From Alphaproteobacteria bacterium (lineage in GTDB: Bacteria > Pseudomonadota > Alphaproteobacteria > CAAHEQ01 > UBA3637), in assembly GCA_015062385.1 (NCBI GenBank), contig SUUT01000006.1:7587-71586 (forward strand): 64,000 bases of DNA. Direction: 5' to 3'. The position numbers and the translations under genes are program-made. The notes under the pieces were generated by a model, which ran no database searches, was not told where the DNA came from, and saw nothing but the letters and a program-made list of their open reading frames with translations. This document shows, piece after piece, positions 8,174-50,019 of this stretch (its first letter is position 1; each line of letters starts with the position of its first letter).

Positions 8174-8243
8174 TGTTAAAGATGAAGCTTGGTTATTGCT
8201 TTTTGTTTTGATTGTTGTTTTTCTTATTATATATCCCGCATTG

Positions 8244-8572: not shown

Positions 8573-8588
8573 GACAAACAATGATATA

Positions 8589-8606: not shown

Positions 8607-8668
8607 GAGGATTTTCAATTCGTCGTTATGTATAAAATTGAGTTGTTTTTTTAAGAAAGGAAATAAAA

Positions 8669-9127
8669 ATGTCAATAAAAACAGATATATTATCTTCCAG
8701 TCAATCGGGAATGAGTGATGTGATATGGGATAAAGATTTATTAACCGTTCCTTGGGCTTGTGCCGGATTGGGGATAAAGCCTTCTGAAATTCGGATATTG
8801 ACGGCTTTAGCATTCTTTTGGCAGGGGCGTTTGGTCGGGTCGTTATTGTTTCATGATGGCTATGCCGGTCGGGATGTTTGGTGGACAATTTATACAGTAG
8901 ATAAACATTGGTGTCAACGGCGTTTTTTACGGACAATTTTTCGGGTTGCGTTTGAAGATTTTCATTTTCGCAGAATAGGAATTATTGTTCGGGCAGACAA
9001 TAAAAAATCATTGTCGTTGGTTCGTCGGCTTGGCTTTGTAGAGGAGGGACGATTTCGTCAAATTGAAGATGACGGAACGGATTGCCTTGTTTTTTCAATG
9101 CTCAAAAATGAAAATCAATTTGTATAA
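8669..9127 (+). CDS. GNAT-family N-acetyltransferase
   Basis: The C-terminal half (FHFRRIGIIVRADNKKSLSLVRRLGFVEEGRFRQ) fits the GNAT acetyl-CoA-binding beta4-alpha3 and beta5 pattern. Confidence 0.65.
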   Translation: MSIKTDILSSSQSGMSDVIWDKDLLTVPWACAGLGIKPSEIRILTALAFFWQGRLVGSLLFHDGYAGRDVWWTIYTVDKHWCQRRFLRTIFRVAFEDFHFRRIGIIVRADNKKSLSLVRRLGFVEEGRFRQIEDDGTDCLVFSMLKNENQFV

Positions 9128-9129
9128 TA

Positions 9130-9147
9130 TAGTTTTACTATAAGTTC
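9130..9147 (+). promoter_or_regulatory. conserved phage intergenic motif, copy 5 of 6
   Basis: atatagttttactataagttc, tandem with copy 6, which lies 25 nt downstream. Confidence 0.5.
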
Positions 9148-9154
9148 AGATATA

Positions 9155-9172
9155 TAGTTTTACTATAAGTTT
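9155..9172 (+). promoter_or_regulatory. conserved phage intergenic motif, copy 6 of 6
   Basis: atatatagttttactataagttt. Confidence 0.5.
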
Positions 9173-9357
9173 TGCTTTTGTTCGTTGTCCGAGACTTGTT
9201 TTATCGTTTTTGGGGGCGTAAAAAGTATTTTAAAGTAATAAAAAAATGTCAAAACAGATACGAATAATGTATCTGAATGATTTGTTCAATCAATTTTTAT
9301 TCAAATTTCAAGTGTGTCAAAAATAAATTTAAATTTTTTAAAAAAGGAGAAAAAAAT

Positions 9358-10056
9358 ATGAGTAAAGCAATTGGTTCGGTCTTAGGTACAAATGTTAAAG
9401 TTGATACCTCTGCCGGAGAGAATTATTTATCTTATTTAAAGTCTTATGATACGTCAACAGCCGATAAAACAAACAACTTAATGGCTCAGGAAGCGTATCA
9501 GTTGGCTTCTGATTTATCTAATCAAGGGCTGGTTTCTGCCGTTTCGGCTTCTGATGAAGCCCGTCAGCGGATGGAAAATGCAACATATCAATCATATATG
9601 GATCGCTTAATCCCGCAACATCAACAACAAATGGCTGATTTGGAAACCCGTTTGGCTAATCAGGGATTGTCGGTTGGTTCACAGGCTTATCAAACAGCCG
9701 TTAATAATTTAATGCAAGAACAAAATGATTCCATTAATCAAGCGACTTACAAGAGCGTTATTGCAGGTCAGGATGCTTATACGCAATCCCTAAATGATGC
9801 CATTGCAGCCGGTAATTTTACAAATACGGCTTATCAAACGGCAATTAATCAGATGAATGCACTCTTGCAAAATAGCCCAACGGGGTATCAAAATCAAGCA
9901 AATATCTATGCTGTTCAACAGGGTGTTGCACAACAACAGGCATCGGCAAAACAGCAAAGCTTAAACAATATGTTTGGCGTGTTGGGTGGGGCTTTAAATG
10001 CAGCGACAACCGCTTATGGTTATTCTCAAATGGGTAAAACTGCTTCAAACGGTTAA
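9358..10056 (+). CDS. Q/A/N-rich helical virion protein (ejection/scaffold-like)
   Basis: The start is taken at ATG 9358, behind aaggagaaaaaaat. The 232-aa product is low-complexity and coiled-coil-like. The call is by position only. Confidence 0.4.
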   Translation: MSKAIGSVLGTNVKVDTSAGENYLSYLKSYDTSTADKTNNLMAQEAYQLASDLSNQGLVSAVSASDEARQRMENATYQSYMDRLIPQHQQQMADLETRLANQGLSVGSQAYQTAVNNLMQEQNDSINQATYKSVIAGQDAYTQSLNDAIAAGNFTNTAYQTAINQMNALLQNSPTGYQNQANIYAVQQGVAQQQASAKQQSLNNMFGVLGGALNAATTAYGYSQMGKTASNG

Positions 10057-10203
10057 TCGGTGTTAACCTCAAATAATGCAGTATATCAGAGTGTTTTTTT
10101 TCTGTAATTTAAGTGTATCTGCATTTGATATTATTTATTTTTAATCAATAAATTAAATAGAATTATTAATGCTTAACATTAATTTAAAAAAAGGAAGGTT
10201 AAA

Positions 10204-11454
10204 ATGACAAATTTTAATTATGTTAATGATATTTTAAACGTTAATCGTCATGCTCCGAAAGCATTGGATTTAACGGGGATTGCCTCATTGCCGAATGCGG
10301 CGATAAATGGTTTACGAAATGGTATGGAGTTGAAAAATACAGTTTTGAAACAGCAGTCAACAGCAGATAGTTTATCTCGTCAACAGGCAGAAAACGATGT
10401 TCGGCGACAATATTTGCAAAATCCGGCTGCAAATACCATTTATGAGCCGTATTTTAACATCCGTCCATCTGGTCTTTCTCAAATGAATGGATATACAGTT
10501 AACGGCACAACTCAATCAGGTACCGATCGTTCTCGGATGATGCCGTCTAATGGATCTTCAATCAATAGTCGGGTAAATACATCCCGTACGCAAATGAGTG
10601 CAAAAGATAAAGAGTGGAATCGATTGACTGAGGCTGGTTTCGCTCCGCAAGAAATTATGTCTGTCTTATATCCGAAAGGTGTTCAAAGTAATGCTGTACA
10701 GCAAGAAAATCAAAAATCTTCAACAATGTTTGATAGATATGATTATTTTAACAAAAACAATCAAATAAATGACATTTCTAATCCAGTGAATGAAGATAAT
10801 TTTTCATCTTCAAACTTGATGAATGTTGGTCAAAATGTTTTTGTTTCTCCTCAACGTACACCGGTGGATTTTTCGGCTGTTGGAACAGATATGACAGTTC
10901 CTTCCGGCATGAATTTTGATACATCGGATGTGGCTAATCCGACAGATTTGAATACGTCATATCGACAAAATGCGTTTTCTTTTCCGCAATCGGATATCGT
11001 AAATGAAAAAACAATACCTATGCAATCGTTTATGTCCACATCTGAAACGGGGCCGATGAGTATGGATACAGTAAGTGATACATTAAATGCTTCCAATCCG
11101 GTAAGTAGTGAAATAAATACCTCAACGATGAGTGGAACAGTTGATAATGCATTTGTGTCAACAGGAACATCATCTGCTCCTACGGTTGAAAATATGCTAT
11201 CGACTTCCCCTGTCGGTTTAGGTGGAATGCATACAACAAATAATTATTCCTCCGAAACACAAAAATCAAGCGGACAAACATCATCGGTTGAAACTCAAAG
11301 CATGCATATGATGCCGTTTAAAACACAAGATGAATTGTATGCTTTTCAAGAAGCTGCTTTGGGAGCTGATTCTTCTTTAACCCCTGATCAACGCAATGCG
11401 CGTATTTTACAGGGCGTGCCAGTGTCTGATACATTTTGGAACAGCTTTGTTTAA
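10204..11454 (+). CDS. S/T/N-rich low-complexity virion protein (ejection/internal protein candidate)
   Basis: The 416-aa ORF has an RBS (aaggaaggttaaaatg) and extended S/T/N/M-rich segments. No family was recognised. Confidence 0.4.
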   Translation: MTNFNYVNDILNVNRHAPKALDLTGIASLPNAAINGLRNGMELKNTVLKQQSTADSLSRQQAENDVRRQYLQNPAANTIYEPYFNIRPSGLSQMNGYTVNGTTQSGTDRSRMMPSNGSSINSRVNTSRTQMSAKDKEWNRLTEAGFAPQEIMSVLYPKGVQSNAVQQENQKSSTMFDRYDYFNKNNQINDISNPVNEDNFSSSNLMNVGQNVFVSPQRTPVDFSAVGTDMTVPSGMNFDTSDVANPTDLNTSYRQNAFSFPQSDIVNEKTIPMQSFMSTSETGPMSMDTVSDTLNASNPVSSEINTSTMSGTVDNAFVSTGTSSAPTVENMLSTSPVGLGGMHTTNNYSSETQKSSGQTSSVETQSMHMMPFKTQDELYAFQEAALGADSSLTPDQRNARILQGVPVSDTFWNSFV

Positions 11455-11473
11455 CCGAATAAAAACCGTTAAC

Positions 11474-11503
11474 TTCCCCCGAAAAGATGTTTTTTCGGGG
11501 GAA
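11474..11503 (+). terminator. strong intergenic hairpin (ttcccccgaaaa-gatgtt-ttttcgggggaa)
   Basis: A 12-bp stem is read directly from the sequence. There is no clear T-run, so it may be a processing or attenuation hairpin rather than a true terminator. Confidence 0.4.
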
Positions 11504-11522
11504 AACGTTTAGGGAGCGGAAA

Positions 11523-11813
11523 ATGGACAGGAGAAGAAAAATGCCAAAATCTATGGATAGATTTTATGAAGTTCTGCATAAAACGGTGACCGGTTTTTTA
11601 ATTCCGCTTGTTTTTTATTTGTTGGGTCAAATCAATGAAGTGAAAAAAGAGGTATCAATTTTTGAGTTGCGGGTTGCCAAAGATTCAGCACAGTATGCCC
11701 TGCGAGATGATATCGTGCGGGTAGAAACAAAAATTGATGAGTTAAAAACACTTATCATACAGGAGGTTAAACGAAATGAGCATTATTACACCGGCTTTAA
11801 AAAAGCGGATTAA
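11523..11813 (+). CDS. holin or i-spanin-like membrane protein
   Basis: The start is taken at ATG 11523, behind gggagcggaaa. It has one TM helix (VTGFLIPLVFYLLGQI) followed by a coiled coil. It lies immediately upstream of, and overlapping, the endolysin gene. Confidence 0.5.
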   Translation: MDRRRKMPKSMDRFYEVLHKTVTGFLIPLVFYLLGQINEVKKEVSIFELRVAKDSAQYALRDDIVRVETKIDELKTLIIQEVKRNEHYYTGFKKAD

Positions 11814-12201
11814 ACGACATGAAGGGATGCGTCTTAAACCGTATCATTGTCCGGCTGGACGACTGACAATTGGCATTGGGCGTAATTTAACTGATGTTGG
11901 TATAACAGAAACGGAAGCTGAGTATTTGTTGGAAAACGATTTGCAATCGGCCGAAAAAAATTGTTCGGATGCGTTTATTTGGTATGAAAAACTGGATAAT
12001 ATTCGAAAAGGCGTGATTGTGGAAATGGTTTTTAATTTAGGATTTGCGGGATTTTTGGGATTCCGCAAATTGATAAAAGCGTTAACGATAGGGGATTATC
12101 TGACCGCTTCGAAAGAAATGTTATCCAGTCGTTGGGCAGCACAGGTGGGGCATCGGGCAGAGGTATTATCGTTAATTATGAAAACAGGAAAGGAGTATTA
12201 A
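11776..12201 (+). CDS. T4-type (GH24) phage lysozyme/endolysin
   Basis: HEGMRLKPYHCPAGRLTIGIGRNL aligns with T4 lysozyme [24 protein letters not shown], including the catalytic Glu and Thr. EMVFNLGFAGFLGF...SRWAAQVGHRAEVL aligns with NMVFQMGETGVAGF...SRWYNQTPNRAKRV. Confidence 0.9.
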   Translation: MSIITPALKKRIKRHEGMRLKPYHCPAGRLTIGIGRNLTDVGITETEAEYLLENDLQSAEKNCSDAFIWYEKLDNIRKGVIVEMVFNLGFAGFLGFRKLIKALTIGDYLTASKEMLSSRWAAQVGHRAEVLSLIMKTGKEY

Positions 12202-12202
12202 C

Positions 12203-12343
12203 ATGAAAGACAGACTATTATTATTTTTAAAAACAAACAAAAAGAAAATGATAACATTTATCGTAACGGGTATTTTAGCGGCGTTAGGTGTAGTAGCCGA
12301 TACAACGGCGTTAACTGAGTTATTGTCCGTTATGATACCATAA
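12203..12343 (+). CDS. 46-aa single-TM protein (holin/antiholin/spanin-like), below the ORF-track cutoff
   Basis: The ATG lies 2 nt after the lysozyme stop, with aggag 8 nt upstream. The product is MKDRLLLFLKTNKKKMITFIVTGILAALGVVADTTALTELLSVMIP, with a basic N-terminus and one TM helix. Confidence 0.5.
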   Translation: MKDRLLLFLKTNKKKMITFIVTGILAALGVVADTTALTELLSVMIP

Positions 12344-12354
12344 AAGGAGTGAAA

Positions 12355-13011
12355 ATGATGATTGTACAGCAAACGAAACCGGCGTTTTATCCGATAACGA
12401 CGGAGGATGTGTCGGCAACGGATATGCCGGAATGTCATCAATTAAATAATCGGATACATTCAGTTGAAAATAAGCTCAAAAAGCAAAATCATTCATCTGA
12501 AATTGTTTCGTCTGTTCAGCGAAAGCCTCAAAAAACTTCCGTTGAACGAAATTTGCAATCAGTTCAGGAAAAAAAGGTTTCTGTTTTTTCCGAACAGGAT
12601 GTATTGCCATCTCAGCGGAAAGCAGAAATGCTTTCCGCTGAACAAATTCAGTGTACAAAGCAAAAACAAACAGATGTTTGTTCTGTCACACAGGATGAAC
12701 CGACCCTTTTTTCATATACGATTGCAGACAGTTTTTCAAAATTATGTGATATTCAGGAAACTGCTTTATCCATGGCACCCAAACCCGATTTTACGGCAGC
12801 GTTAAAGTCGGAGGAATTAAAAGGAAAACTGTTTGGATTATATACGGATAAAAAGGATAAAGAAAAAGGATTTGAAAATTTACCGCAGTTGTTGGTTGAA
12901 TTTATTGAGGTTGATAAAACGGAATATCGAACATCATTCGGCAATGCAACAGCAGATAATAATCATTCGACAGAGGAAAATAGTTTGCCATTTACGGTAG
13001 AATATGTTTAA
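12355..13011 (+). CDS. hypothetical phage protein upstream of the large terminase (small-terminase position)
   Basis: The ATG lies behind aaggag. The 218-aa product has no recognisable motifs. Only its position suggests a small-terminase (TerS) role. Confidence 0.3.
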   Translation: MMIVQQTKPAFYPITTEDVSATDMPECHQLNNRIHSVENKLKKQNHSSEIVSSVQRKPQKTSVERNLQSVQEKKVSVFSEQDVLPSQRKAEMLSAEQIQCTKQKQTDVCSVTQDEPTLFSYTIADSFSKLCDIQETALSMAPKPDFTAALKSEELKGKLFGLYTDKKDKEKGFENLPQLLVEFIEVDKTEYRTSFGNATADNNHSTEENSLPFTVEYV

Positions 13012-13022
13012 GGAGTTTTTTT

Positions 13023-14348
13023 ATGCCAAAAATCAAGGTGTGCATACCGGCGGTTTTTCGTCCGTTGTTAAGTCAGAAAAAACGCATTAAATTTTATTAC
13101 GGCGGACGGGCAGGGGGAAAATCTTATGCTTTTGCCGATAGTTTACTGATTTTAGGGCGGATGAAAAAATTATTTATTGTCTGTTTAAGGGAGATTCAGG
13201 GATCCATTCGGGATTCTGTTCATAAATTGTTATCTGATCGTATTTCGTATTATCAGTTAAGTGATTATAAAGTGACTGATACAAAAATTGAAAATAAAGT
13301 GACCGGAACAGTTTTTGTATTTAAAGGTTTGCGAGATCAGGATCCGCAAAAAATAAAATCATTGGAGGGAGCAGATATTGCTTGGATTGAAGAAGCACAA
13401 ACCATTACCAAAAAATCATGGGATATATTAGAACCGACCATTCGTAAGCCGAATTCCGAAATTTGGATATCCATGAATCGAGAACAGGAAAATGATCCTT
13501 TATGGGTAGCGGTGGCAGTACAACCGGATGAAAATACGCTGGTTCAAAAGGTTAATTATACAGATAACCCCTTTTGTCCGCAGGAAATGAAAGATTTAGC
13601 CGATAAGTGTCGAGAGAAAAATCCGACGGATTATGCACACATTTGGTTAGGTGAACCCATTTTAAACGGAAATAATAAGCTGATAGATTTGCAGTCCGTT
13701 AAAAAGGCTCAATCGGGTCATCTGATTGAAACATCCGGTTCGTTGATTATCGGATTGGACATTGCCCGTTTTGGGGATGATGAAACTGTTTTTTGTTTCA
13801 GGCGGGGGCGTATATGTGAACGGTTTGAAGCCTATCGGAAAAAAGATACGGTAGAAGTGGCAAATATTGTCACGCATTACATTCAGCAATATCAACCATA
13901 TCGCATTTTTTTGGATATTGGCGGACAGGGTGCCGGTGTGTATGATATTTTAACGGACAGAGGATTTCGGGAAGTTGTTCGGGGTATATCGTTTGGGGAA
14001 AAAGCCATTCAATCAGACAGATACGTGAATAAACGGGCAGAAATGTGGGACGGTATTCGTCAATGGTTGACGGGAACGAGTCCTGTTTATTTGCCGAATG
14101 ATACAGCTATTACGGATGATTTATGTGATGTGAATAAAAAATACGATCGGTTGGGACGATTACAGTTGGAAGAAAAAGAAAGTTTAAAACGCCGGTTAGG
14201 ACGTTCTCCGGATTGGGGAGATGCATTAGCGTTAACGTTTGCAGAGCCGATATTTGAACAAGATACGCCGAATTTATATACGAATGATACGGATAAAATC
14301 AGCATTGAAACCTTGTTTTGCGATAAAAGGGAAGGTGCTGGTTGGTAA
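13023..14348 (+). CDS. terL: phage terminase large subunit
   Basis: It has a Walker A-like YYGGRAGGKSYAFA and an ATPase-coupling LREIQGS / IAWIEEAQ (Walker B-like). The C-terminal nuclease-like half has GLDIARFGDDETVF and FLDIGGQGAGVYD. Confidence 0.8.
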   Translation: MPKIKVCIPAVFRPLLSQKKRIKFYYGGRAGGKSYAFADSLLILGRMKKLFIVCLREIQGSIRDSVHKLLSDRISYYQLSDYKVTDTKIENKVTGTVFVFKGLRDQDPQKIKSLEGADIAWIEEAQTITKKSWDILEPTIRKPNSEIWISMNREQENDPLWVAVAVQPDENTLVQKVNYTDNPFCPQEMKDLADKCREKNPTDYAHIWLGEPILNGNNKLIDLQSVKKAQSGHLIETSGSLIIGLDIARFGDDETVFCFRRGRICERFEAYRKKDTVEVANIVTHYIQQYQPYRIFLDIGGQGAGVYDILTDRGFREVVRGISFGEKAIQSDRYVNKRAEMWDGIRQWLTGTSPVYLPNDTAITDDLCDVNKKYDRLGRLQLEEKESLKRRLGRSPDWGDALALTFAEPIFEQDTPNLYTNDTDKISIETLFCDKREGAGW

Positions 14349-14463
14349 TGGGAAAAGTAGGCTGAAAAAGCAGATAAAAGGGATGTGTTTCAGCAATAAT
14401 AAGGGTAGAACGATTTTTTATTAATGAAACACATCTAAAAGGGCAGAAAAAAATCTGCCCTTT
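14316..14463 (+). repeat. 148-bp perfect direct repeat, left copy (terL 3' end plus terminator)
   Basis: Base-for-base identical by eye to 16028-16175. It contains an 11-bp inverted repeat (gatgtgtttca ... tgaaacacatc) and the gggcaga/tctgccc terminator. Confidence 0.9.
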
Positions 14464-14464
14464 T
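14441..14464. terminator. bidirectional rho-independent terminator
   Basis: gggcaga-aaaaaa-tctgccc is flanked by A4 and T4. Confidence 0.75.
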
Positions 14465-14486
14465 CCCAACTTTGAGCCATATGATA

Positions 14487-14551
14487 TTACTGCACCAAAA
14501 TAGCTTGTGCGGTTGCAGATGATACAGTCGGTGTCGCATAAAAAATAAGGC
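14487..14551 (-). pseudogene. relic 3' end of a pilin-like Cys-rich paralog
   Basis: The reverse strand reads ...FYATPTVSSATAQAILVQ*, against ...FYASIDVFSSTAQAILIQ* at the end of 16212..18341. An in-frame stop lies just upstream, so only about 20 codons survive. Confidence 0.6.
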
Positions 14552-14692
14552 TATACATTTAATCGGGTTATTATTTGATGTTATCGAAAATGGTTTTAGG
14601 GACAAAAATGGATAGTTTAAGTTTAAAAATTGGGTAAAAGTTAAACTTAAATAGCATAATATTAAAATAAGTTTAATTGTTCAAACTTAAAT

Positions 14693-15817
14693 TTATAAAC
14701 CGGCTTCAATTATATCCATATACTTTTTGAATATGTATTTTTTATATCTTTTTGTTTGATTGGTTTGGACTAATAATCCTTTTTCCACAAATCCATTTAC
14801 TAATTTATTTGCGGTTGCTTTACTAACTTGTAATGATTTCTCAACTGCTGAAATCTCTAATGTTGGTTTGACGAATAAAAAGTCAAAAAGTTTATACTCA
14901 TTTTCTCCTTTTAAAGTATGGGATAGTTCATTTTTTAACGAATTAATTTGAGTAGTTGTTTGCATAATTTGTTTGCAAACTATTTCTATTCCTTTTAAAA
15001 AGAACAAAATCCAAGTCTCAAAATCATTATTTTCTCTTGTTTTTGTTAAGAGAGTATAGTATTCTTGTTTATGTTTTTTTAAGTATAAACTCAAATATAA
15101 TGTCGGTTGTTCCAAGATGTTTTTGCTTATTAAAAATAAACTGATTAATAAACGTCCAATTCTTCCGTTTCCATCTAAAAATGGATGAATGGTTTCAAAT
15201 TGATAGTGTATTAATGCTAATTTAATAACATCGGGAAGTGTTCCTTCATAGATATATTTTTCTAAATCACTCATTAAATTAATTACGGTATCTTCTTTGG
15301 GTGGAACATAAATTGCGGTAGAGGGATTATTTCCGCCAATGAAATTTTGACTTCTTCTGAATTCGCCGGGGGTTTTGTCGTTTTCTCCACCTCTCACATT
15401 ATTCATTAAAATATTGTGACATTCTCTTAATAGCCTTGATGATAAAGGTAATCCACCATTTTTGATTTGATTGGTGGCATAATTTAAAGCATGCAAGTAG
15501 TTTTTCACTTCTATAATATCTACTTTTATATCATCATTATTATTGTTTTCATTTTGTAAAATTTCCACCATGGTGGATTGTGTCCCTTCTATCTGTGATG
15601 ATAATAATGCTTCTTTTAATGCATATTTTTCAATTAAAAGTTCCGGATTAGGTAATAAAATATTTAATGCATTTAATTGTCCTAATGCCCAAGTTGCACT
15701 GGAGATTGCTTGATATAGATTTGACAAATCCAATTCTTTTTCTATTTGTTGTAATGCATTTGGTTGAAAAGTGTCATATCCTCTGCCAGAATTTACTTTA
15801 CTTCCGGAAATTGGCAT
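14693..15817 (-). CDS. Fic-family protein (class II, N-terminal inhibitory helix, C-terminal wHTH-like domain)
   Basis: It has the Fic motif HPFLDGNGRIGR and the inhibitory motif S-x-x-x-E-G in LLSSQIEGTQS upstream. The C-terminal ~70 aa are winged-helix-like. Confidence 0.9.
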   Translation of the reverse strand: MPISGSKVNSGRGYDTFQPNALQQIEKELDLSNLYQAISSATWALGQLNALNILLPNPELLIEKYALKEALLSSQIEGTQSTMVEILQNENNNNDDIKVDIIEVKNYLHALNYATNQIKNGGLPLSSRLLRECHNILMNNVRGGENDKTPGEFRRSQNFIGGNNPSTAIYVPPKEDTVINLMSDLEKYIYEGTLPDVIKLALIHYQFETIHPFLDGNGRIGRLLISLFLISKNILEQPTLYLSLYLKKHKQEYYTLLTKTRENNDFETWILFFLKGIEIVCKQIMQTTTQINSLKNELSHTLKGENEYKLFDFLFVKPTLEISAVEKSLQVSKATANKLVNGFVEKGLLVQTNQTKRYKKYIFKKYMDIIEAGL

Positions 15818-16211: not shown

Positions 16212-18341
16212 CTATTGTATCAAAATCGCTTGTGCGGTTGATGAGAATACATCTATTGATGCATAAAACGTATTGGCAGGTGCTAGATCTTTATTGGTAT
16301 TTACCTGTGCCAATACAACAAGTTGATTACCTTTTGGTTTTTGTAATGCCATTAATAAATGTTGCCCATGATTATCATAGCATCCGGTATCTTGATCATA
16401 ATGAACCGGTACAAAATTTGAAATAGTTGTATTTGTTAAGATTATCTGATTGTTTGTTACAGTTAAACGACCGCTCCATCTTGGACAGCTTCCTAATTGA
16501 ACACTTGTAGAAATATCTGCTTTTTGATTTGTTCCGATTAATTGCCATACACCGGTTGTAATTGTTGTCGGAAAAGTAAATATTAACGAATTTCCTTTGG
16601 TTAATGAATATGTTCCAACATGATTAGCAATATCTTCATAATATCCGCCTGTTTCAATCGAAACGGTTACGGCACACGCTTTATGTTCATCATTCCAAGT
16701 TGCCCCCTCCGGACACGTAATACACGTTCTGCCATTATCATGTGAACCGGTCGGACAAGTACATCCTGTTTGTGTGGCATTTATGATATACGGTGCTGTA
16801 CACGTTGCACAGGTTGTCCCTGTATCATATGTTCCTGTCGGACAGACACATTTATCGCCTTCACGAGTATAGGGGGCAAAGCACATCGGGCCCCAATCCC
16901 GACATAATGCGTAGTGCGGTCCACCATGATAATCCGTAGAAGAGCTTTGATGTGTATTAACTTTGTTTTGAGATAACCAGAAACAGGCTCGTTGACAAGT
17001 CATATTGCCACTCTGACTCCAAGGATTATAGGTAATCCACGGACCACTTGAATATCCGGCATTTATTAAATTGGTTGTAATTATCTTATATACTGAACTA
17101 TCATATCCGCTACATGTTTGGGCCTGATTGTCAATTGCTAGATTGTTTGTACATCCTAAATCAGGAACGGATACCATTTGTTTCCCCAAAGCTGTACAGA
17201 AGTTAATGGCTGATTCCCAACCTTTATTGCCGTCTCCATAATCTTTTTTAGAGAAATAAAAGTTGACACCGTTAATTTTGAAAGTGATGAAATCCAATTT
17301 TTCACAACGAGCATTGCTAAATGTTCCCGTTTCACAAATATTATCCCCCCGTGTACAGAAATAATTTGTATCATTATTGTACAGTTTATGACAATCATCA
17401 TTCGATTCGCATTCATTCGGCGAACATTCTTTACCATTCCAATACGGCGCAGAACTTGGACAGGCAATACATTCGTTTGTATTAACGGCAAAAACCGGTG
17501 TTGCATCCGGACATTTTTCACATTTGTCTGGATTTGTACTGTTCACATTATAAAATGGGCGTTCATCCGGACACGATTTGCAGGTATTATTTGATGTATC
17601 ACAGACAAGGTTCGGAATTTGACACGTACTGTCATCGATGCATTCAACACATTCTTCATTATGCCATACAGGTGTCATATCCGGACAACGACACGTTGTT
17701 TCATCTTCAAACCATTCTTTGGGCGGATAACACCGTTCGCAATTATCTCCAAATTCATATTCGTGACGACAAACACAACCATATGTACCATCTTCTTTTT
17801 GTCGCCATACCATTTTATCGGGGCAGGATTGCGGTTCAATATTTGGATTATCCGTTTCTGTTTCAGTGGTTCCGCCGAAATGACTGTCTGAATTAACAAC
17901 CGGAATTGCATTAAAAGAAAACACCATATTTGTTTTGCTGTTTGGATTTCCGCACGTTCTTGTTAAAATTGAAATACCCATATCATTCAATATACCTTCC
18001 TTTTGAAGGAGTTTTTCACAAACCTTATAAACCACTTTAAATGTCGTTACCTGATAATTACTATTAACCAACTTGACCATGGACTTTTTGTCATCAGGGA
18101 CATATTCGGAAAGTGCTGATTTAATAAACCGATTGACTTCCAATGCATGAGAAGCCCGAGAATCTGTTTGTGCCAATGTTTTGGCTTTTCCGAGAACATC
18201 CTGCACTTTGCCGGCTTGATAAGCCGTTAACGCATATTGGTAAGTAGCAACACCGGCAACAGATAATACACCGATAATTGCCAATACCCCTAGCATTTCC
18301 ACCATACTTCGTCCGGTTTCATTCAGTTTGATTTTAAACAT
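16212..18341 (-). CDS. type IV pilin-like N-terminus fused to Cys-rich ectodomain with lectin-like insert
   Basis: MFKIKLNETG|RSMVEMLGVLAIIGVLSVAG has a Gly, Glu at +5 and a hydrophobic helix. The RBS is gggaggag. It has dense C-x-x-C / C-x-C repeats, a W-x-S-A-x-x-F-C-x-x-x-G module, and a Cys-poor beta-rich C-terminal ~140 aa. Confidence 0.8.
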   Translation of the reverse strand: MFKIKLNETGRSMVEMLGVLAIIGVLSVAGVATYQYALTAYQAGKVQDVLGKAKTLAQTDSRASHALEVNRFIKSALSEYVPDDKKSMVKLVNSNYQVTTFKVVYKVCEKLLQKEGILNDMGISILTRTCGNPNSKTNMVFSFNAIPVVNSDSHFGGTTETETDNPNIEPQSCPDKMVWRQKEDGTYGCVCRHEYEFGDNCERCYPPKEWFEDETTCRCPDMTPVWHNEECVECIDDSTCQIPNLVCDTSNNTCKSCPDERPFYNVNSTNPDKCEKCPDATPVFAVNTNECIACPSSAPYWNGKECSPNECESNDDCHKLYNNDTNYFCTRGDNICETGTFSNARCEKLDFITFKINGVNFYFSKKDYGDGNKGWESAINFCTALGKQMVSVPDLGCTNNLAIDNQAQTCSGYDSSVYKIITTNLINAGYSSGPWITYNPWSQSGNMTCQRACFWLSQNKVNTHQSSSTDYHGGPHYALCRDWGPMCFAPYTREGDKCVCPTGTYDTGTTCATCTAPYIINATQTGCTCPTGSHDNGRTCITCPEGATWNDEHKACAVTVSIETGGYYEDIANHVGTYSLTKGNSLIFTFPTTITTGVWQLIGTNQKADISTSVQLGSCPRWSGRLTVTNNQIILTNTTISNFVPVHYDQDTGCYDNHGQHLLMALQKPKGNQLVVLAQVNTNKDLAPANTFYASIDVFSSTAQAILIQ

Positions 18342-18380
18342 TTGGCTCCTCCCTACAAAAAAACTACTACTTTATATTAT

Positions 18381-18536
18381 AAAAAAAGGTACCTTTTTTT
18401 CCCGCTTCGAATCGAAAGAATCGGATTTTTAAGAAAATGAAAAATTATTGTTTTTATTGAATTGGTTAGTTAAAATCAAAAAAAATGTCAAAATGTGAAA
18501 AAAATTGTTGCATTTATACGTACCTTTTTGTACAGA
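18381..18536 (-). promoter_or_regulatory. conserved upstream element, copy A
   Basis: This is the reverse complement of 27526-27678. It ends in the perfect palindrome aaaaaaaggtaccttttttt (18381-18400). It also contains an A8/T8 tract and the tctgtacaaaaaggtacgta box. Confidence 0.75.
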
Positions 18537-21679: not shown

Positions 21680-21843
21680 TCTGTAAAAAAAGGGACGTAT
21701 AATTGCAACACTTTTTTTCACTTTTTAGCATTTTTTTTGATTTTAACTAACTTATTAAACTAAAAGAATAATCTTTCATTTTTGCCGAAAGTTGATTTTC
21801 CCGATTCGAATAGGGAAAAAAAGGTCCCTTTTTGTATACACAA
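21680..21843 (+). promoter_or_regulatory. conserved upstream element, copy D (most diverged)
   Basis: tctgtaaaaaaagggacgtataattgcaacactttttttcac...T8...gattttaactaa...gattcgaatagggaaaaaaaggtcccttttt is collinear with copies A-C. The palindrome is degraded to ggtccc. Confidence 0.65.
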
Positions 21844-21873
21844 TTAGTGTACAACCAAACACATGGAGGAAAT

Positions 21874-22242
21874 ATGAAAAAAATACTATTATTAGCAACT
21901 CTTTCTATCATCTTGCCAAGTATAGCATGGGGAGCCTGTGAAGGTGGAGAAGAATTTACCGGTAAAAATGGTCATGTATATTGTAAAAGCAATCAATATA
22001 TGAATTGGTGGAGTGCTTTTGCTTGGTGCAAAGCAAACGGTCGTCATTTAGTGACTTTGGATGAAGCATGCAATAATAATTCTTGGATAAACGGTTGTCC
22101 AAATATTTTTTTAGACGTAGATCGGTTTGGTTGGACTTCAATCGCATCAGGGGATCAACACGCCTATCGTGTTCATTTTAAATATGCCACTGTTAGCACA
22201 GCAGGGAGAGCTGGCGAGTACTGTACTGCTCTTTGCTATTAA
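21874..22242 (+). CDS. small secreted Cys-rich lectin-like protein
   Basis: The start is taken at ATG 21874, behind ggagga. It has a Sec signal (MKKILLLATLSIILPSIAWG|A). NWWSAFAWCKANGRHLVTLDEAC ... EYCTALC parallels GWESAINFCTALGKQMVSVPDLGC ... HYALC in 16212..18341. Confidence 0.6.
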   Translation: MKKILLLATLSIILPSIAWGACEGGEEFTGKNGHVYCKSNQYMNWWSAFAWCKANGRHLVTLDEACNNNSWINGCPNIFLDVDRFGWTSIASGDQHAYRVHFKYATVSTAGRAGEYCTALCY

Positions 22243-27490: not shown

Positions 27491-27678
27491 CGGGTTCAAA
27501 AGAATGCCATAATAAAAAATATATGTCTGTACAAAAAGGTACGTATAAATGCAACAATTTTTTTCACATTTTGACATTTTTTTTGATTTTAACTAACCAA
27601 TTCAATAAAAACAATAATTTTTCATTTTCTTAAAAATCCGATTCTTTCGATTCGAAGCGGGAAAAAAAGGTACCTTTT
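27322..27678. repeat. right arm of the ~360-bp inverted repeat
   Basis: See 18381-18743. Confidence 0.85.
27526..27678 (+). promoter_or_regulatory. conserved upstream element, copy B
   Basis: tctgtacaaaaaggtacgtataaatgcaacaatttttttcacattttgaca-T8-gattttaactaacc...cgattcgaagcgggaaaaaaaggtacctttt. Confidence 0.75.
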
Positions 27679-27726
27679 ATTACACTCACTTTATAAATGC
27701 AACTTTATAATTGTGAGGGTAAGATT

Positions 27727-30700
27727 ATGCGAATCAAACTGAATGAACATGGACGAAGTATGGTAGAAATTCTTGGTGTGTTGGTTGTTATTGGCATATT
27801 GTCTATTGGGGGTATGGTTGGATATGAATATGCCTATTCGGCATATCAAGTACATAAAATTCAGGATGTTTTGCTAAAAGCAAAAGCACAGACAGACACC
27901 AAACGTCGAAATTCCCGAGTGACAAGCATTAATCGTTTTGTTAAAAGTACATTAAGCGAATATGCTCCGGATGATAATACACCAATGGTTTCTTTTGAAG
28001 AAAATGTTCATTATGTCGATTTATACAAAGTATCGGATGTTATATGTAAAATGTTGTTTGAGCGACAAGAGTCATTGAGCCGAGTCGATATTTATCTAAT
28101 AAAACCTAACAGTATCGAAAATTGTACCAATCAAGAAAATCGTTTAGTGTATTCATTTGACAAAGTTGTTGATACAGATGACACGTCAACCTCCGATTGG
28201 ACTGATGAACCACTGAATTCTGATATTCCCGACTGTGAATATCCCCGTCAGATAATAGATGGGATTTGTACTTGTGCCTCTCCGACAATATGGAGTGATG
28301 TATATAACGATTGTATTTGTGATGAAGAAAATTATGCTGATATGTGTGCTGCTTGTCCGTTGCCTCGTAAATGGGTTTCCGGAGAATGTGTTTGTGCCGA
28401 TTCGGATAAGGTTTGGGATGAAGAAAATAACGCTTGTGTTTGTAAAGATGAAAATGCAGAAGAAGATGCATCCGGTAAGTGTATTCTTTGTGAATCTCCG
28501 AATACATACGACCCAATTGAAGATAAATGTGTTTGTATAGAACCGGAATGTGTATGCGAAACACCTCGTCAGATTATAGATAACGAATGTAAATGTTCAG
28601 ATAATCAAAAATATTTAGAAAGTGAAAATATTTGTGTTGAATGTCGTCACAATAATGATTGTATGGATGAGTACTATTGTGATGAAAATCATACCTGTCA
28701 ATTGTTGAATTGTGATGAAATGGGTTTTCCGATACGGTCCTTTTATTGCAGTTATGTGGATTTTGACAGTAATGCCGGTTATACCCCGTGGATGTATGTA
28801 AATAAGTATTATCAAACGGGGAGGGGAAATTGGACACTTGTATCTGGTTGCCAAAATTCTGTTTTGATTGTTCCAAAAGATTTTAAAGGTAATGTTTCTT
28901 TGGGTTCTTGTCGAGTTGGATGGGTTATTATTGACGGACAAAAATATTCATTAAATTCAAGCAAAACAACAGAGATTGATATTAAAAAAGGGAAATATTC
29001 CATTACATTCGGAACATCTCGTAATAAAGGTCGGGAAGGATGTAATATTAATTTCCATAGAAAACTCGGATGGGATATCTGTATGGCAAAGCAAAATAAT
29101 TGTCCTGCCGGATTTTATTGCCAACCTGACAGTCATAAAACAACTATTTGTCCAGTGGGGCATTATTGTCCCCAAAATTCATTTTTAGGGCCTACGCAAT
29201 GTCCGGTCGGAACATATAATCCTGAGGAAGGAAAATCGGCAAAAAGCGATTGTATGACGTGTTCATTAGGTAATTATTGTGCCAAAGGTTCTATTAATCA
29301 AACTCCTTGTCCGGCAGGATATTATTGTACATCAGCTTCTAAACAGACAGCATGTCCGAAAGGAACGTACAATCCGGATACGGGTAAAACGGCAAAATCT
29401 GATTGTATTGTCTGCTCGGAAACATCTTATTGTCCGGCGGGATCTGTACAGGAAATTACGTGTCCCGCAGGATATTATTGTACAGAAACAGCTCAAACAG
29501 CTTGTCCTGCAGGAACGTATAATCCGAATGAGGGCGCAACCGATAAGAGTGCCTGCTTAAAATGCGAATCCGGTCATTATTGCCCGAAAGCTTCCGTTAC
29601 CCAAACAATCTGCCCAAAAGGTCATTATTGTTCTTTGACAACAGCAACGGCTTGTGGGGCAGGTAAATATAACAATTTAGAAGGACAAACAAGTAGTAAG
29701 GCTTGTTTAGCTTGTCCGGCAGGTTCCTATTGTCCAAAAGCATCGGCTGAACCGATAATTTGTCCGAAAGGATATTATTGTTTGGCAAGTAAAGGGGCAG
29801 CAACTGTTTGTCCGAGCGGAACTTATACTGTTGGCGAAGGGGCAACGGCAAAAACAGATTGTATTGCTTGTACAACTGGTATGTATTGTGCAACGGGTGA
29901 AAGCGGAGATTGTCCGGCAGGATATTATTGTCCGACCCCCAAGACAAAAACAGCATGTCCGGTTGGTACTTACAACCCAACACCCGGAGCAACAAGCAAA
30001 GATGCTTGTATTGCATGTGATGACGGTATGTATTGTGCCAAAGGTTCTACCGAACAAACGCCTTGTCCGGCGGGGTATTATTGTACATCTCCTTCAACAA
30101 AAACGGCATGTCCGGCCGGAAAATACAATCCGAATGAACAGGCAACCAGTAAAACAGATTGTATTGCTTGTACAAGCGGATATTATTGTTTAAAAGGGGC
30201 TATTGAACAAACACTGTGTTCTATAGGGTGTTATTGTTCATTAACAAAAGAAACTATATGTTCTGCCGGAACTTACAACTTAAAAACGGGACAAAGCAGT
30301 TCTTCTGCTTGTTTGGCTTGTCCGGTCGGAATGTATTGTCCAACAACAACCAAAGAACCGATTACTTGTCCGGAAGGGTATTATTGTCCGGCAAAATCAG
30401 CGACGGCAAAAGCATGTGCAAGTGGTTATTTTAGTGATGTTGGTGCAAAAGTCTGTACAAAATGTTTAGCGGGGTCTTATTGTCCTGATGGTAAGAACTC
30501 AACAATAAAAACGTGTCCAATCGGGCATTATTGTGCTGCCGGATGTACTTCTCCGGTAAAGTGTGCAGAGGGGTATTATAACGGACAAACAGGACAATCG
30601 GCTTGTACAAAGTGTCCGGCCGGTTCATACTGCTCGGGAACGGGAAATACGCAAACAACGGTTTGTCCGGCGGGGGCATATTGTCCGGCAGGAGCAACTG

Positions 30701-31344
30701 CACCGACATTGTGTGCCGCCGGAAAATACAATCCGAATACAGGCGGAACGGCAAGCACGGCTTGTAAAACATGTCCGGCCGGTTCCTATTGTCCGACAGC
30801 GGGAACAGTGACTCCTATAACTTGTAAAGCCGGAACTTATTGTGTTGCCGGAGCAACGGCAGAAAAAGTATGTGCTGCCGGATATTACAATGGGCAAACA
30901 GGACAATCGGTTTGTACAAAGTGTCCGGCTGGTTCATACTGCTCGGGAACAGGCAATACACAAATGACTGTTTGTCCGGCGGGGGCATATTGTCCGGCAG
31001 GAGCAACTGCACCGACATTGTGTGCCGCCGGAAAATACAATTCGAATACAGGCGGAACGGCAAGCACGGCTTGTTTAAAGTGTCCTGCTGGTTCATACTG
31101 CTCGGGAACGGGAAATACGCAAACAACGGTTTGTCCGGCGGGGGCATATTGTCCGGCAGGAGCAACTGCACCGACATTGTGTGCCGCCGGAAAATACAAT
31201 CCGAATACAGGCGGAACGGCAAGCACAGCTTGTTTAAAGTGTCCTGCTGGGTCTTATTGTGGGAAAGGAACTATAACGCCGATTGCTTGTCCGGATGGAA
31301 AAACATCAGTTGCCGGTTCGGATGCTTTAAGCGATTGTAAATAA
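27727..31344 (+). CDS. type IV pilin-like N-terminus fused to giant ephrin-receptor-like/GCC2_GCC3-like Cys-repeat protein (1205 aa)
   Basis: The start is taken at ATG 27727 (RBS gagggtaagatt). The N-terminus is MRIKLNEHG|RSMVEILGVLVVIGILSIGG. About 14 units of ~50 aa follow, with CPxGxYC ... CPxGTYNPxxGxxxxxxCxxCxxGxYC. Confidence 0.85.
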   Translation: MRIKLNEHGRSMVEILGVLVVIGILSIGGMVGYEYAYSAYQVHKIQDVLLKAKAQTDTKRRNSRVTSINRFVKSTLSEYAPDDNTPMVSFEENVHYVDLYKVSDVICKMLFERQESLSRVDIYLIKPNSIENCTNQENRLVYSFDKVVDTDDTSTSDWTDEPLNSDIPDCEYPRQIIDGICTCASPTIWSDVYNDCICDEENYADMCAACPLPRKWVSGECVCADSDKVWDEENNACVCKDENAEEDASGKCILCESPNTYDPIEDKCVCIEPECVCETPRQIIDNECKCSDNQKYLESENICVECRHNNDCMDEYYCDENHTCQLLNCDEMGFPIRSFYCSYVDFDSNAGYTPWMYVNKYYQTGRGNWTLVSGCQNSVLIVPKDFKGNVSLGSCRVGWVIIDGQKYSLNSSKTTEIDIKKGKYSITFGTSRNKGREGCNINFHRKLGWDICMAKQNNCPAGFYCQPDSHKTTICPVGHYCPQNSFLGPTQCPVGTYNPEEGKSAKSDCMTCSLGNYCAKGSINQTPCPAGYYCTSASKQTACPKGTYNPDTGKTAKSDCIVCSETSYCPAGSVQEITCPAGYYCTETAQTACPAGTYNPNEGATDKSACLKCESGHYCPKASVTQTICPKGHYCSLTTATACGAGKYNNLEGQTSSKACLACPAGSYCPKASAEPIICPKGYYCLASKGAATVCPSGTYTVGEGATAKTDCIACTTGMYCATGESGDCPAGYYCPTPKTKTACPVGTYNPTPGATSKDACIACDDGMYCAKGSTEQTPCPAGYYCTSPSTKTACPAGKYNPNEQATSKTDCIACTSGYYCLKGAIEQTLCSIGCYCSLTKETICSAGTYNLKTGQSSSSACLACPVGMYCPTTTKEPITCPEGYYCPAKSATAKACASGYFSDVGAKVCTKCLAGSYCPDGKNSTIKTCPIGHYCAAGCTSPVKCAEGYYNGQTGQSACTKCPAGSYCSGTGNTQTTVCPAGAYCPAGATAPTLCAAGKYNPNTGGTASTACKTCPAGSYCPTAGTVTPITCKAGTYCVAGATAEKVCAAGYYNGQTGQSVCTKCPAGSYCSGTGNTQMTVCPAGAYCPAGATAPTLCAAGKYNSNTGGTASTACLKCPAGSYCSGTGNTQTTVCPAGAYCPAGATAPTLCAAGKYNPNTGGTASTACLKCPAGSYCGKGTITPIACPDGKTSVAGSDALSDCK
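30571..31233 (+). repeat. near-identical in-frame intragenic repeats
   Basis: 156-bp units at 30610-30765, 30919-31074 and 31078-31233 encode KCPAGSYCSGTGNTQ(T/M)TVCPAGAYCPAGATAPTLCAAGKYN(P/S)NTGGTASTAC and differ at only a few bases. 30571-30765 is repeated at 30880-31074. Confidence 0.9.
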
Positions 31345-48600: not shown

Positions 48601-48756
48601 TCTGTACAAAAAGGTACGATTAATTGCAACACTTTTTTTCACATTTTTGAATTTTTTTTAATTTTGAATAACATATTCAACTAAAACAATAATTTTGCAT
48701 TTTATCAAAAATTTAATTTTGCTGATTCGAATAGGGAAAAAAAGGTACCTTTTTTT
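48601..48756 (+). promoter_or_regulatory. conserved upstream element, copy C
   Basis: tctgtacaaaaaggtacgattaattgcaacactttttttcacatttttgaa-T8-aattttgaataac...gattcgaatagggaaaaaaaggtaccttttttt. The 20-bp perfect palindrome lies at 48737-48756 and is followed by tataat. Confidence 0.75.
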
Positions 48757-48798
48757 ATAATATGTTTTATAAGAATCATTTTATAAAAGGGGAAAGAT

Positions 48799-50019
48799 AT
48801 GAAAATTAAAATTAATGAATTCGGTCGTAGCATGGTGGAAATGCTAGGTGTACTTGCCGTTATCGGGGTATTAAGTGTTGCCGGTATTATGGGATATAAG
48901 TATGGTATGATGAAATATCGGGTCAATGAAACTGTGAATGAACTCAACATTATGGCAAACACATATGGTGTTCAAATGCAACAGATGACAGAAGAACAGA
49001 CAATGCCGACAAACGGAGAATTACTGAGTGAAGAAGGGGCAACGACTCGTATGGGCTATGGATATGAAGTGCTGGGTTTTGATAATCATTTTGAAATAGC
49101 CTTATTGAATATCCCGACAGAAGAATGTGAACAACTCCAAAAAACAGGGTGGGCTATGCCGTATGATATACAAGTTGCAGAAGTGACAGCAGAAAACTGT
49201 GGCGAAATTGTATATTATATCAACAATGATTTAAGCGGATTTGCTCCGGAAACAGATAGTTCAGATGAAGATGATACAGATGAGGAAGAATCTCCGCTTG
49301 ATTGTGGTTTATATGGAACATTGATTGATAATACTTGTCAATGCGATGATGGATATACGGGAAATACATGTAATCGATGTGATACATCAAAAGGGTATAA
49401 GAAACAAGATTCTAATGGTAAATGTTATCAGGATTGTCAAATAACAAACAGTTGTACAAATGAAAATTATTGCAATGGAAATGCATTTCATACGGTAATT
49501 GGAGGCGATGGTCTTTTTTATTGTAAGCATTGCAAAGATGGGTATTGGGGAACACATTGTGAAAATTATGATCCTTCAGGCGATGCTTGTAATGGTCAAA
49601 GTAAAAGTTATGGTTGGATGAATTCTAATGTTGTAAATGGATGTGCTTGTGATAATAATCATTGGGGAGATCATTGTGAATATTTAAAATCAGAAAAGCC
49701 TGAATGTCATGGTCACGGAACAGTATATGGTTATGGACATTGTACTTGTGATGAAGGTTATTCCGGAGAATATTGTGAAAAGGAAGAACCAGCTGTTGAA
49801 TGTGGTATTACACTGGATTCTTATGGTTCTAAAAGTGGGTATATGATATATGAAAATGGTACAGCCTATTGTCAATGTGTCAATGGTTATACCGGTTCAG
49901 ATTGTAAAACTCCGCCAACCCAAGAATGCAAAAATGGTTATTGGGCTTATTATGAGGAAAATCCGACATGCGTTTGTTATAGTGGATGGTCCGGACCTGA
50001 TTGTAATACTCGGAATTAA
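48799..50019 (+). CDS. type IV pilin-like N-terminus fused to EGF-like repeat protein (406 aa)
   Basis: The N-terminus is MKIKINEFG|RSMVEMLGVLAVIGVLSVAG. Repeats CQCDDGYTGNTC, CTCDEGYSGEYC, CQCVNGYTGSDC and CVCYSGWSGPDC fit the EGF-like C-x-C-x2-G-[FYW]-x4-C pattern. Confidence 0.85.
   Translation: MKIKINEFGRSMVEMLGVLAVIGVLSVAGIMGYKYGMMKYRVNETVNELNIMANTYGVQMQQMTEEQTMPTNGELLSEEGATTRMGYGYEVLGFDNHFEIALLNIPTEECEQLQKTGWAMPYDIQVAEVTAENCGEIVYYINNDLSGFAPETDSSDEDDTDEEESPLDCGLYGTLIDNTCQCDDGYTGNTCNRCDTSKGYKKQDSNGKCYQDCQITNSCTNENYCNGNAFHTVIGGDGLFYCKHCKDGYWGTHCENYDPSGDACNGQSKSYGWMNSNVVNGCACDNNHWGDHCEYLKSEKPECHGHGTVYGYGHCTCDEGYSGEYCEKEEPAVECGITLDSYGSKSGYMIYENGTAYCQCVNGYTGSDCKTPPTQECKNGYWAYYEENPTCVCYSGWSGPDCNTRN

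Follow-up and report, generated by a model that had tools for sequence, protein, structure and literature searches.

The subject of this analysis is an open reading frame (ORF) in a 64,000-nucleotide stretch of contig SUUT01000006.1 of a gut Alphaproteobacteria bacterium, hereafter the window. The ORF is located at 27727..31344 on the forward (+) strand, ends with a stop codon at 31342-31344 and encodes a protein of 1205 amino acids (aa), here called the target. The target belongs to a very large family, as yet unnamed, in which pilin heads are combined with variable tails. We consider it probable that it serves as a modular minor pilin in a type IVb pilus and is one of numerous alternative adhesins for the tip. 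This explanation is supported by the signal grammar of the N-terminus, by the family, by the pilin-like fold of the head, by the identity of the repeats in the tail and by a pilus operon present in related genomes.

From the N- to the C-terminus the target comprises a pilin module or head (aa 1-150; 27727..28176 (+)), supported by structure model, Foldseek and hhalign, an acidic linker with C-x-C-rich modules (aa 151-330; 28177..28716 (+)), supported by sequence and Cys count, a non-repeat insert (aa 331-455; 28717..29091 (+)) and Ephrin_rec_like/TNFR-type cysteine repeats (aa 456-1205; 29092..31341 (+)), supported by hairpin count, Pfam matches of pieces and structure model. Counting showed that 122 of the 1205 residues are Cys, with 2 in the head (taken here as aa 1-165), 25 in the C-x-C region (aa 166-330), 5 in the insert and 90 in the repeats. 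The counts of Cys residues and hairpins agree with the layout given in a preliminary description of the window, which was made from the sequence alone and listed C-x-C modules, an insert (~125 aa by our count) and about 14 units of ~50 aa. This architecture is not due to chance because the leader is nearly invariant in thousands of database proteins and because a 21-mer motif of the element upstream of the gene occurs at 4 copies in the window as compared to 0 expected. Moreover, an identical 1205-aa protein is called on two independent ENA metagenome contigs, likewise upstream of mreB.

Leader, pilin head and family

The longest frame of the target begins at 27697, and the homologues all begin with MRIKLNEHG, corresponding to a start at 27727. 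The N-terminus reads exactly as quoted in the preliminary description: a basic 9-aa leader ending in Gly (MRIKLNEHG, aa 1-9; 27727..27753 (+)), with predicted cleavage after Gly9, precedes RSMVE with Glu at +5 and a hydrophobic helix. This alpha-1 helix (aa 10-58; 27754..27900 (+)), which starts with R1-S-M-V-E5 and continues with ILGVLVVIGILSIGGMVGY, is the predicted filament-core assembly helix. The proposal that these features follow the grammar of class III (type IV pilin) signals is borne out by conservation within the family, by the register with solved pilins and by the presence of the same leader on the major pilin of the operon described below. The leader consensus of the family is G|RSMVE(M/I)LGVLAIIG(V/I)LS, and in an alignment of 45 sequences Glu+5 is invariant and Gly-1 at least 90% conserved. 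When aligned with a Geobacter pilin, whose leader reads G|FTLIE, the leader of the target has the same register, and the AIIG.L motif and Tyr24 also line up. The +1 residue is Arg in 231/231 sampled database members and in 166/166 ORFs of the fetched loci, the latter including the three family genes of the window itself. In class III signals the +1 residue is hydrophobic and N-methylated, namely Phe in type IVa and Met, Leu or Val in type IVb pilins, so that the target, with Arg at +1, lacks the hydrophobic +1 residue of type IV pilins. Arg1 lies one helical turn from Glu5 and could be pairing with it, and an invariant Arg+1 would extend the accepted class III signal rule. The leader is 9 aa long in the target, 7-11 aa in most family members and 11-16 aa in the operon pilins, the type IVb norm being about 15-30 aa. 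Judged from these alignments, G|RSMVE appears to act as a functional class III signal in a type IVb system, albeit one that has an odd +1 residue, an unusually short leader and predicted cleavage, because the same leader is found on operon pilins that match solved type IVb pilins.

The head was compared at the level of sequence and of predicted structure. A paralog of 709 aa in the window (16212..18341 (-)) has, on sequence comparison, the same leader and head and a different Cys-rich tail; identity between the two heads is 43% and includes the pair KSTLSEYAPDD / KSALSEYVPDD, as had been noticed for a common region of ~150 aa in the preliminary description. An AlphaFold model of the head, based on a 45-sequence alignment, reached a pLDDT of 82.4 and a pTM of 0.69 and combines a 49-residue helix (residues 10-58) and another helix with a sheet of four strands, which is accompanied by two short helices. 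The eight best PDB matches to this model in Foldseek are all type IVb pilins, namely TcpA in the toxin-coregulated pilus (TCP) filament and CofA of enterotoxigenic Escherichia coli (ETEC), with crystal structures of TcpA and S. Typhi PilS at lower ranks. The model is suggestive of a pilin fold; structure prediction, one of the checks put forward in the preliminary description, thus gave type IVb pilins as best matches, with weak statistics. A search of the PDB with a head profile returned sub-threshold pilin matches only (E 0.44 and 0.81). The alignment of the heads of the long proteins with the operon major pilins by hhalign gave a probability of 99.4% and an E-value of 1e-21 over 115 columns, with a signal derived mostly from alpha-1, and the two groups are homologous on this comparison. 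A disulfide-bonded C-terminal region is a feature of type IVb pilin domains; the head contains exactly two Cys residues, C107 and C132, of which C107 is invariant in an alignment of seven heads.

A profile built from seven heads matched at least 7842 proteins and, at E<=1e-3, 5685 clusters at 50% identity, 2836 of which had E<=1e-10. Among species-representative genomes at least 544 family matches were confirmed, nearly all in metagenome-assembled genomes (MAGs) named 'Alphaproteobacteria bacterium', which come from the guts of buffalo, goat, deer, sheep, rabbit and human; Acetobacter sp. CAG:977 is among these genomes, and several of the species-representative genomes each gave five or more family loci. 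The 231 sampled database members have a median length of 232 aa, with 102/231 longer than 300 aa and 36/231 longer than 600 aa, and the longest family ORF in the fetched loci encodes 1642 aa. Long members contain 4-11% Cys, and according to their genomic context short members are scattered among housekeeping genes. Source annotation labels family members as 'hypothetical' and now and then as FimT/PilE. No Pfam or NCBIfam model captures the GRSMVE family, which therefore cannot be filed under the Pfam N_methyl or NCBIfam pilin signatures, and in the literature on pili of RF32/Alphaproteobacteria and on PF07699 in bacteria no description of it was found.

The cysteine-rich tail

The C-x-C-rich region (aa 151-330) matched no Pfam family, and similar C-x-C modules are present in the 709-aa paralog and in homologues. 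The insert is predicted to be all-beta and had no Pfam match; its model, with a pLDDT of 37-62, is unreliable as the alignment is too shallow. Besides the target, it was found only in the database proteins P0012 and P0161. The latter combines a head almost identical to that of the 709-aa paralog with the insert and the C-terminal ending of the target, a mosaic that, as far as can be judged from the sequences, shows module shuffling between family members.

The repeat region holds 42 C-x2-G-x-[YF] hairpins and one degenerate hairpin recognized by eye, spaced at 14-20 aa and forming ~14 units of ~50 aa. The C-terminus of the target consists of repeats and has no hydrophobic segment. The youngest duplicates lie in a DNA tandem array at 30574..31250 (+), for which Tandem Repeats Finder reported 159 bp x4.2 (also 309 bp x1.9) with 75-83% matches; at the protein level three nearly identical units of ~53 aa are seen, and the last repeat units are recent DNA duplications. 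These last units (30877-31341, +) also pass the cut-off of the Pfam family DUF7631, with 31.4 as compared to 27 bits.

The assignment of the repeats to the ephrin-receptor-like type, made in the preliminary description, holds both for sequence models and for the fold. The whole target scored 17.1 bits with Pfam Ephrin_rec_like (PF07699), below the cut-off of 23.1 bits, whereas three of five 160-aa pieces passed it (27.8, 23.2 and 30.2 bits) and the other two reached 21.5 and 21.4 bits; weaker TNFR_c6 and furin-like matches were also obtained with 160-aa pieces of the repeats. In a model of aa 325-640 the repeats have a pLDDT of 90-97, and Foldseek matched this model with the Chlamydomonas mastigoneme protein Mst1 (E 8e-8), ELAPOR1 (2e-4), thyroglobulin, Eph ectodomains and the TNFR-type protein 4-1BB. 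A sequence search of the PDB with the repeats gave nothing at E<=0.01. Taken together, the profile matches and the predicted fold give the repeats an Ephrin_rec_like identity and the modeled structure of a disulfide-stapled beta-hairpin ladder as in the cysteine-rich domains of Eph and TNFR proteins.

The best repeat matches beyond the family look eukaryotic, coming from fish, reptile, echinoderm and ciliate, with an identity of only 29-37%. The database proteins P0010, P0013 and P0015 carry the same leader together with the same repeats as the target. PF07699 has been described as a domain of early eukaryotic origin, its rare bacterial cases being ascribed to horizontal transfer (PMC6993872). 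In Mst1, ELAPOR1 and the Eph cysteine-rich domain both the repeat model and the fold match the target, and the repeats of Mst1 are part of an extracellular filament protein; however, these are eukaryotic proteins of the secretory pathway, whereas the repeats of the target, at 29-37% identity, stand on a bacterial pilin scaffold. A hairpin ladder like that of Mst1 would fit a stalk. In the target, extracellular cysteine repeats of a kind usually associated with eukaryotes would be at work in the envelope of a bacterium, which would make it a striking case.

The type IVb operon of related genomes and the proposed pilus

Genes for a pilus, a type II secretion system (T2SS) or a Tad system were not found in the window, in which nearly all ORFs of >=100 aa were scanned; the statement of the preliminary description that no pilus or T2SS machinery lies there holds for every ORF scanned. 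A conserved operon that ends in a pilin of 185-218 aa with the same GRSMVEMLGVLAIIGVLS N-terminus was found in related MAGs and metagenome contigs, namely at five genome loci, two JGI loci and 80 further metagenome loci. The gene order is an unknown protein of 450-520 aa, a TcpQ-like protein, a secretin, PAP_PilO, a PilP-like coiled-coil protein, a T2SSE ATPase, a T2SSF platform protein, a membrane-anchored Bundlin-like protein and the pilin. For the secretin, the nearest model is 'PilN family type IVB' (277.5 bits as compared to a cut-off of 287.65). The ATPase shares 35.7% identity with BfpD and 38% with ATPases encoded on plasmids of Bosea and Methylorubrum, the Bosea plasmid operon being syntenic and annotated with pilO2 and a PilV tip adhesin. 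The pilus machine appears to be a core feature of the clade because its ATPase shows 82-95% identity among the 120 best database matches, each of which represents a 90%-identity cluster. A profile of the operon pilins matched BfpA (E 4e-11), TcpA (6e-6) and S. Typhi PilS (3e-4) in the PDB, and in the alignment with TcpA the Arg is mature residue 1 and the Glu is Glu5. Judged by these matches, the pilins encoded in the operon are genuine members of type IVb.

A further conserved gene of the operon, placed between those for the platform protein and the major pilin (9263-9859(+) in locus L022; 12831-13379(+) in locus L087), encodes a Bundlin/PilS-like domain with an ordinary N-terminal membrane anchor instead of a class III signal. 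In L087 the region upstream of the operon on the opposite strand (1-2854(-)) holds a 117-aa gene with a TrbC match and a 147-aa gene that looks alike by eye and has no recorded match; a gene of >1000 aa without family match follows these two small genes. This arrangement hints at an origin of the operon in a conjugative element. The only conserved multi-spanning membrane protein found near the operon was the T2SSF protein.

A second pilin gene with the GRSMVE leader, besides the major pilin or duplicates of it, was found neither in the inspected operon loci nor in the 80 further ones. In the type IVb pili characterised so far, assembly does not begin without a minor pilin (PMC5207764), and the operon would have to obtain one from elsewhere. 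Given that no other pilin with this leader was seen in the operon loci, while the genomes hold many dispersed genes that share the assembly helix and vary in their tails, the most economical interpretation is that the target belongs to a set of alternative tip pilins. We propose that the target enters the inner membrane through its class III signal and that a prepilin-type peptidase cuts the 9-residue leader after Gly9. The mature N-terminus (Arg1...Glu5 and the hydrophobic helix) would then dock in the core of a filament made of the ~190-aa major pilin, which has the same N-terminus, and the filament would be built by the conserved chromosomal type IVb machine composed of the TcpQ-like protein, PilN-type secretin, PilO2-like and PilP-like proteins, BfpD/PilQ-like ATPase and T2SSF platform. 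The tail is expected at the filament tip because a bulky tail only fits there, and it would take the shape of a slender, stiff rod stapled by disulfides, with a length of perhaps some tens of nanometres if TNFR-type modules are taken as a rough guide. The rod would bear or itself constitute a surface that binds to the host, to mucus or to other cells; this surface would be provided by the insert and the repeats. For the target itself, cleavage, incorporation into the filament, tip location and adhesion are inferred. We read the many paralogs with the same head or leader and other tails as interchangeable tips on one pilus.

This proposal is in accordance with several characterised systems. Modular pilins are an established design, which includes the Streptococcus sanguinis proteins PilB, bearing a vWA module, and PilC, bearing a lectin module (Raynaud et al. 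2021; PMC8179133); like the target, they have a proposed filament-tip site and a role in adhesion, and the concept covers many repeated extra domains. In such proteins an N-terminal pilin module is joined to a C-terminal module recognisable as a domain without specificity for pilus biology, and by this definition the target, with its pilin-like head and Ephrin_rec_like repeats, is a modular pilin. However, the known modular pilins were catalogued via IPR012902 (N_methyl), which the target family fails, and are type IVa or Com-like with Phe-type N-termini, whereas the target family is type IVb-like with an invariant Arg+1; the tail of the target is far larger (about 1050 aa, in which as many as 61 disulfides are possible), each genome has many paralogs, and the Ephrin_rec_like domain is not named in the passages of that study considered here (PMC8179133). 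The preliminary description called the architecture unusual; it is not a one-off, given the large family and the established concept of modular pilins (PMC8179133). The family is missed by such catalogues because these rely on the N_methyl signature, and thousands of pilin-headed proteins of common gut and rumen Alphaproteobacteria, known only as MAGs and labelled 'hypothetical', are overlooked.

Among type IVb systems, the minor pilins TcpB (PMC5207764) and CofB (PMC6048534) start assembly and end up at the tip, where CofB forms a trimer (PMC6048534). CofB, TcpB and LngB share with the target the type IVb character, a pilin domain followed by large C-terminal domains and an enteric gut setting (PMC6048534; PMC5207764). 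Their tip location, assembly start and binding are known, whereas for the target these are only proposed; furthermore, they are single-copy genes inside the pilus operon encoding about 400-520 aa with tails made of a beta-repeat and a beta-sandwich, whereas the target family is dispersed and multi-copy, reaches up to 1642 aa and, in the target, has a cysteine ladder as tail. The tip pilin PilV of IncI plasmids has exchangeable adhesin segments (PMC9045228). The thin pili concerned (R64 and TP114, with a shufflon; PMC5430464; PMC9045228) use the same type of machine, with PilN secretin, PilO, PilQ ATPase, PilR and the pilin PilS, and alternative C-terminal segments of PilV set the binding specificity of one pilus. 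In contrast, PilV variants arise by DNA inversion in one gene on a conjugative plasmid, whereas the target family is chromosomal and consists of whole genes with their own leaders and a shared 5' element. Similarly, several tip sets serve one Kil Tad pilus in Myxococcus, where the 'Tips', alternative minor-pilin sets, expose variable domains at the pilus end and widen the target range (PMC12075869); however, Kil is a Tad (type IVc) system with four defined complexes, as opposed to the type IVb setting of the target family, in which each modular pilin is a single chain and the paralogs number in the dozens. If the proposal is true, uncultured commensals colonise with one conserved type IVb pilus and a large wardrobe of tips.

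Several observations weigh against a tip pilin. The Pfam N_methyl model (PF07963, IPR012902), suggested as a check in the preliminary description, failed, with no match for the target and 11.1 bits for the 709-aa paralog as compared to a cut-off of 21.2, and the best NCBIfam pilin model reached only E 0.08 on the target and this paralog. To our knowledge, there is no precedent for Arg at +1 in characterised pilins. The top Foldseek match of the head, TcpA, has a probability of 0.97 at a weak E-value of 0.03 and a TM-score of 0.45 (0.40-0.47 among the matches), and a tail with 61 possible disulfides would have to cross the secretin already folded. An A24 prepilin peptidase was found neither in the window, nor beside the operon, nor elsewhere in 2.3 Mb of clade DNA, comprising all ORFs of 168 loci and the window, by motif scans and phmmer with BfpP from an E. 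albertii plasmid. Moreover, the loci with the operon belong to related MAGs and metagenome contigs and not to the genome of the source organism, no long family member adjoins it in the operon loci, and no single genome was seen to hold both the operon and a long Cys-rich member. The missing A24 peptidase, Arg+1 and the operon not being seen in the source genome or together with a long member make a pilin-like protein that does not polymerise the main rival, if a fairly unlikely one: its class III-type N-terminus would be an inner-membrane anchor or a pseudopilus stub, and the protein an envelope or surface receptor or a matrix protein. Archaeal sugar-binding proteins with class III signals (bindosome) resemble such a protein. 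The dozens of paralogs per genome, far beyond the minor pilins of any known pilus, would be in line with an anchor, as would a gene with a Sec-type signal that has the same upstream element, so that the regulon is not limited to pilin types. On the other hand, the strict conservation at the cleavage and packing positions Gly-1, Glu+5, AIIG.L and Tyr24 and the globular pilin domain kept in long members weigh against an anchor, and a periplasm-bound disulfide rod of ~750 aa would be of little gain to a diderm.

It is improbable that the pilin module is merely an export handle, with the type IVb machine acting as a T2SS-like piston and the proteins then released in soluble form or into a matrix, although the large family with its diverse tails would suit such a function. 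The hydrophobic alpha-1N would make a released protein insoluble unless it was removed, and no second cleavage motif is evident in the sequence. TcpF and CofJ, the known secreted substrates, are not known to be pilins. Type IVb pili do secrete TcpF via TcpB (PMC9565799; PMC10120004) and CofJ via CofB (PMC6048534), but each of the two is a protein in its own right, which is secreted and binds to the minor pilin (PMC9565799; PMC6048534). Considerably less probable still is a T2SS pseudopilin or T2SS-presented surface protein: pseudopilins likewise carry class III signals and the operon ATPase scores partially on GspE models, but all T2SS models score far below their cut-offs on the operon, in which the GspC, L, M and G-K set was not detected and which instead has TcpQ-like, PilN-type secretin, PilO2-like and PilP-like genes and a Bundlin/PilS-type pilin. 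Thus, of the two options in the preliminary description, pilus-anchored or T2SS-presented, the former gains from the type IVb operon that carries the leader in relatives, and the latter was rejected on operon content. Hardly any weight can be given to eukaryotic contamination or an assembly chimera of a bacterial N-terminus with eukaryotic repeats, which the eukaryotic look of the best matches beyond the family might suggest; the ORF runs uninterrupted between dacC and mreB in an alphaproteobacterial context including GcrA, the same protein occurs on independent contigs, and P0010, P0013 and P0015 are bacterial homologues with the same leader and repeats.

Paralogs, upstream element and neighbouring genes

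In addition to the 709-aa paralog, a third leader-bearing gene of the window, missed by the preliminary description, is located at 48799..50019 (+) and encodes a paralog of 406 aa with the same leader and a teneurin/laminin-type EGF tail. An element of ~170 bp is nearly identical 5' of all three paralogs (27552..27726 (+) for the target, 18342-18510 (-) for the 709-aa and 48627-48798 (+) for the 406-aa paralog) and in a fourth copy (21706-21873 (+)) 5' of an ORF at 21874..22242 (+), which encodes a Cys-rich protein of 122 aa that carries a signal of the ordinary Sec type, lacks a pilin leader and matched no Pfam family. The invariant core reads TCGAA..GGGAAAAAAAGGT(A/C)CCTTTT. The copies preceding the target and the 709-aa paralog are practically the same over a stretch of about 125 bp, a degree of conservation above that of the coding DNA. 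In RGIG7750, the closest MAG, the element likewise stands immediately 5' of every family gene, in nine further copies (loci L007, L010 x4, L011, L013, L015 and L047). In locus L010 of this MAG (6106-15073(+)) four family genes (421, 895, 369 and 994 aa) stand head to tail in a 9-kb array, each with its own copy of the element. A riboswitch or other structured RNA was ruled out, as no Rfam match, no RNA covariation and an alifold energy of -3 kcal/mol were obtained. A weak sigma-70-like site is present at 27589-27618, and the element is most likely a shared promoter/operator; a substrate for recombination between paralogs is possible. Its presence on the Sec-signal gene suggests that the regulon extends beyond the proteins with a pilin head. 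Through this conserved 5' element the regulation or diversification of the family becomes accessible to study.

These features recall the variant surface proteins (VSPs) of protists such as Giardia, which are large paralogous families of Cys-rich extracellular proteins with C-x2-C motifs and conserved 5' regions in gut organisms, and which end in a C-terminal membrane anchor, whereas the target ends in repeats. A bolder version of the tip-pilin proposal, which we regard as rather unlikely, is that the family is a bacterial counterpart of these proteins: dozens of dispersed genes per genome would encode tips expressed alternately on one type IVb pilus, with the invariant Gly|Arg-Ser-Met-Val-Glu as handle and, within this lineage, the ~170-bp 5' element for control or recombination, and the eukaryote-type Cys-rich tails (Ephrin_rec_like, EGF/teneurin-like) would possibly derive from hosts or gut protists. 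Because +1 is always Arg and no A24 gene was seen, a divergent or non-A24 peptidase would be assumed here.

The window has a G+C content of about 36%, and the neighbours of the target are ordinary alphaproteobacterial chromosomal genes. Its flanks comprise a prophage, fic, uvrC, dacC-SPOR, mreBCD-pbp2-rodA, polA, the alphaproteobacterial regulator gene gcrA and a TolC-like gene. A C-type-lectin-like motif was suspected in the 709-aa paralog and in ORF 21874-22242 and dropped for want of Pfam support. Likewise, the ORFs 4614-6182, 6185-7354 and 7439-8173, considered by their size as an ATPase/platform/peptidase trio, gave no T2SSE, T2SSF or Peptidase_A24 match and sit in the prophage between the SU10-adaptor gene and the lysozyme and terminase genes. 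The prophage-like block (1-14348) includes an SU10 adaptor, a phage lysozyme, a large terminase and three tandem ORFs of 154 aa (1811-3177) without family match. It is followed by a Fic/DOC gene (14693-15817(-)), which adjoins the 709-aa paralog.

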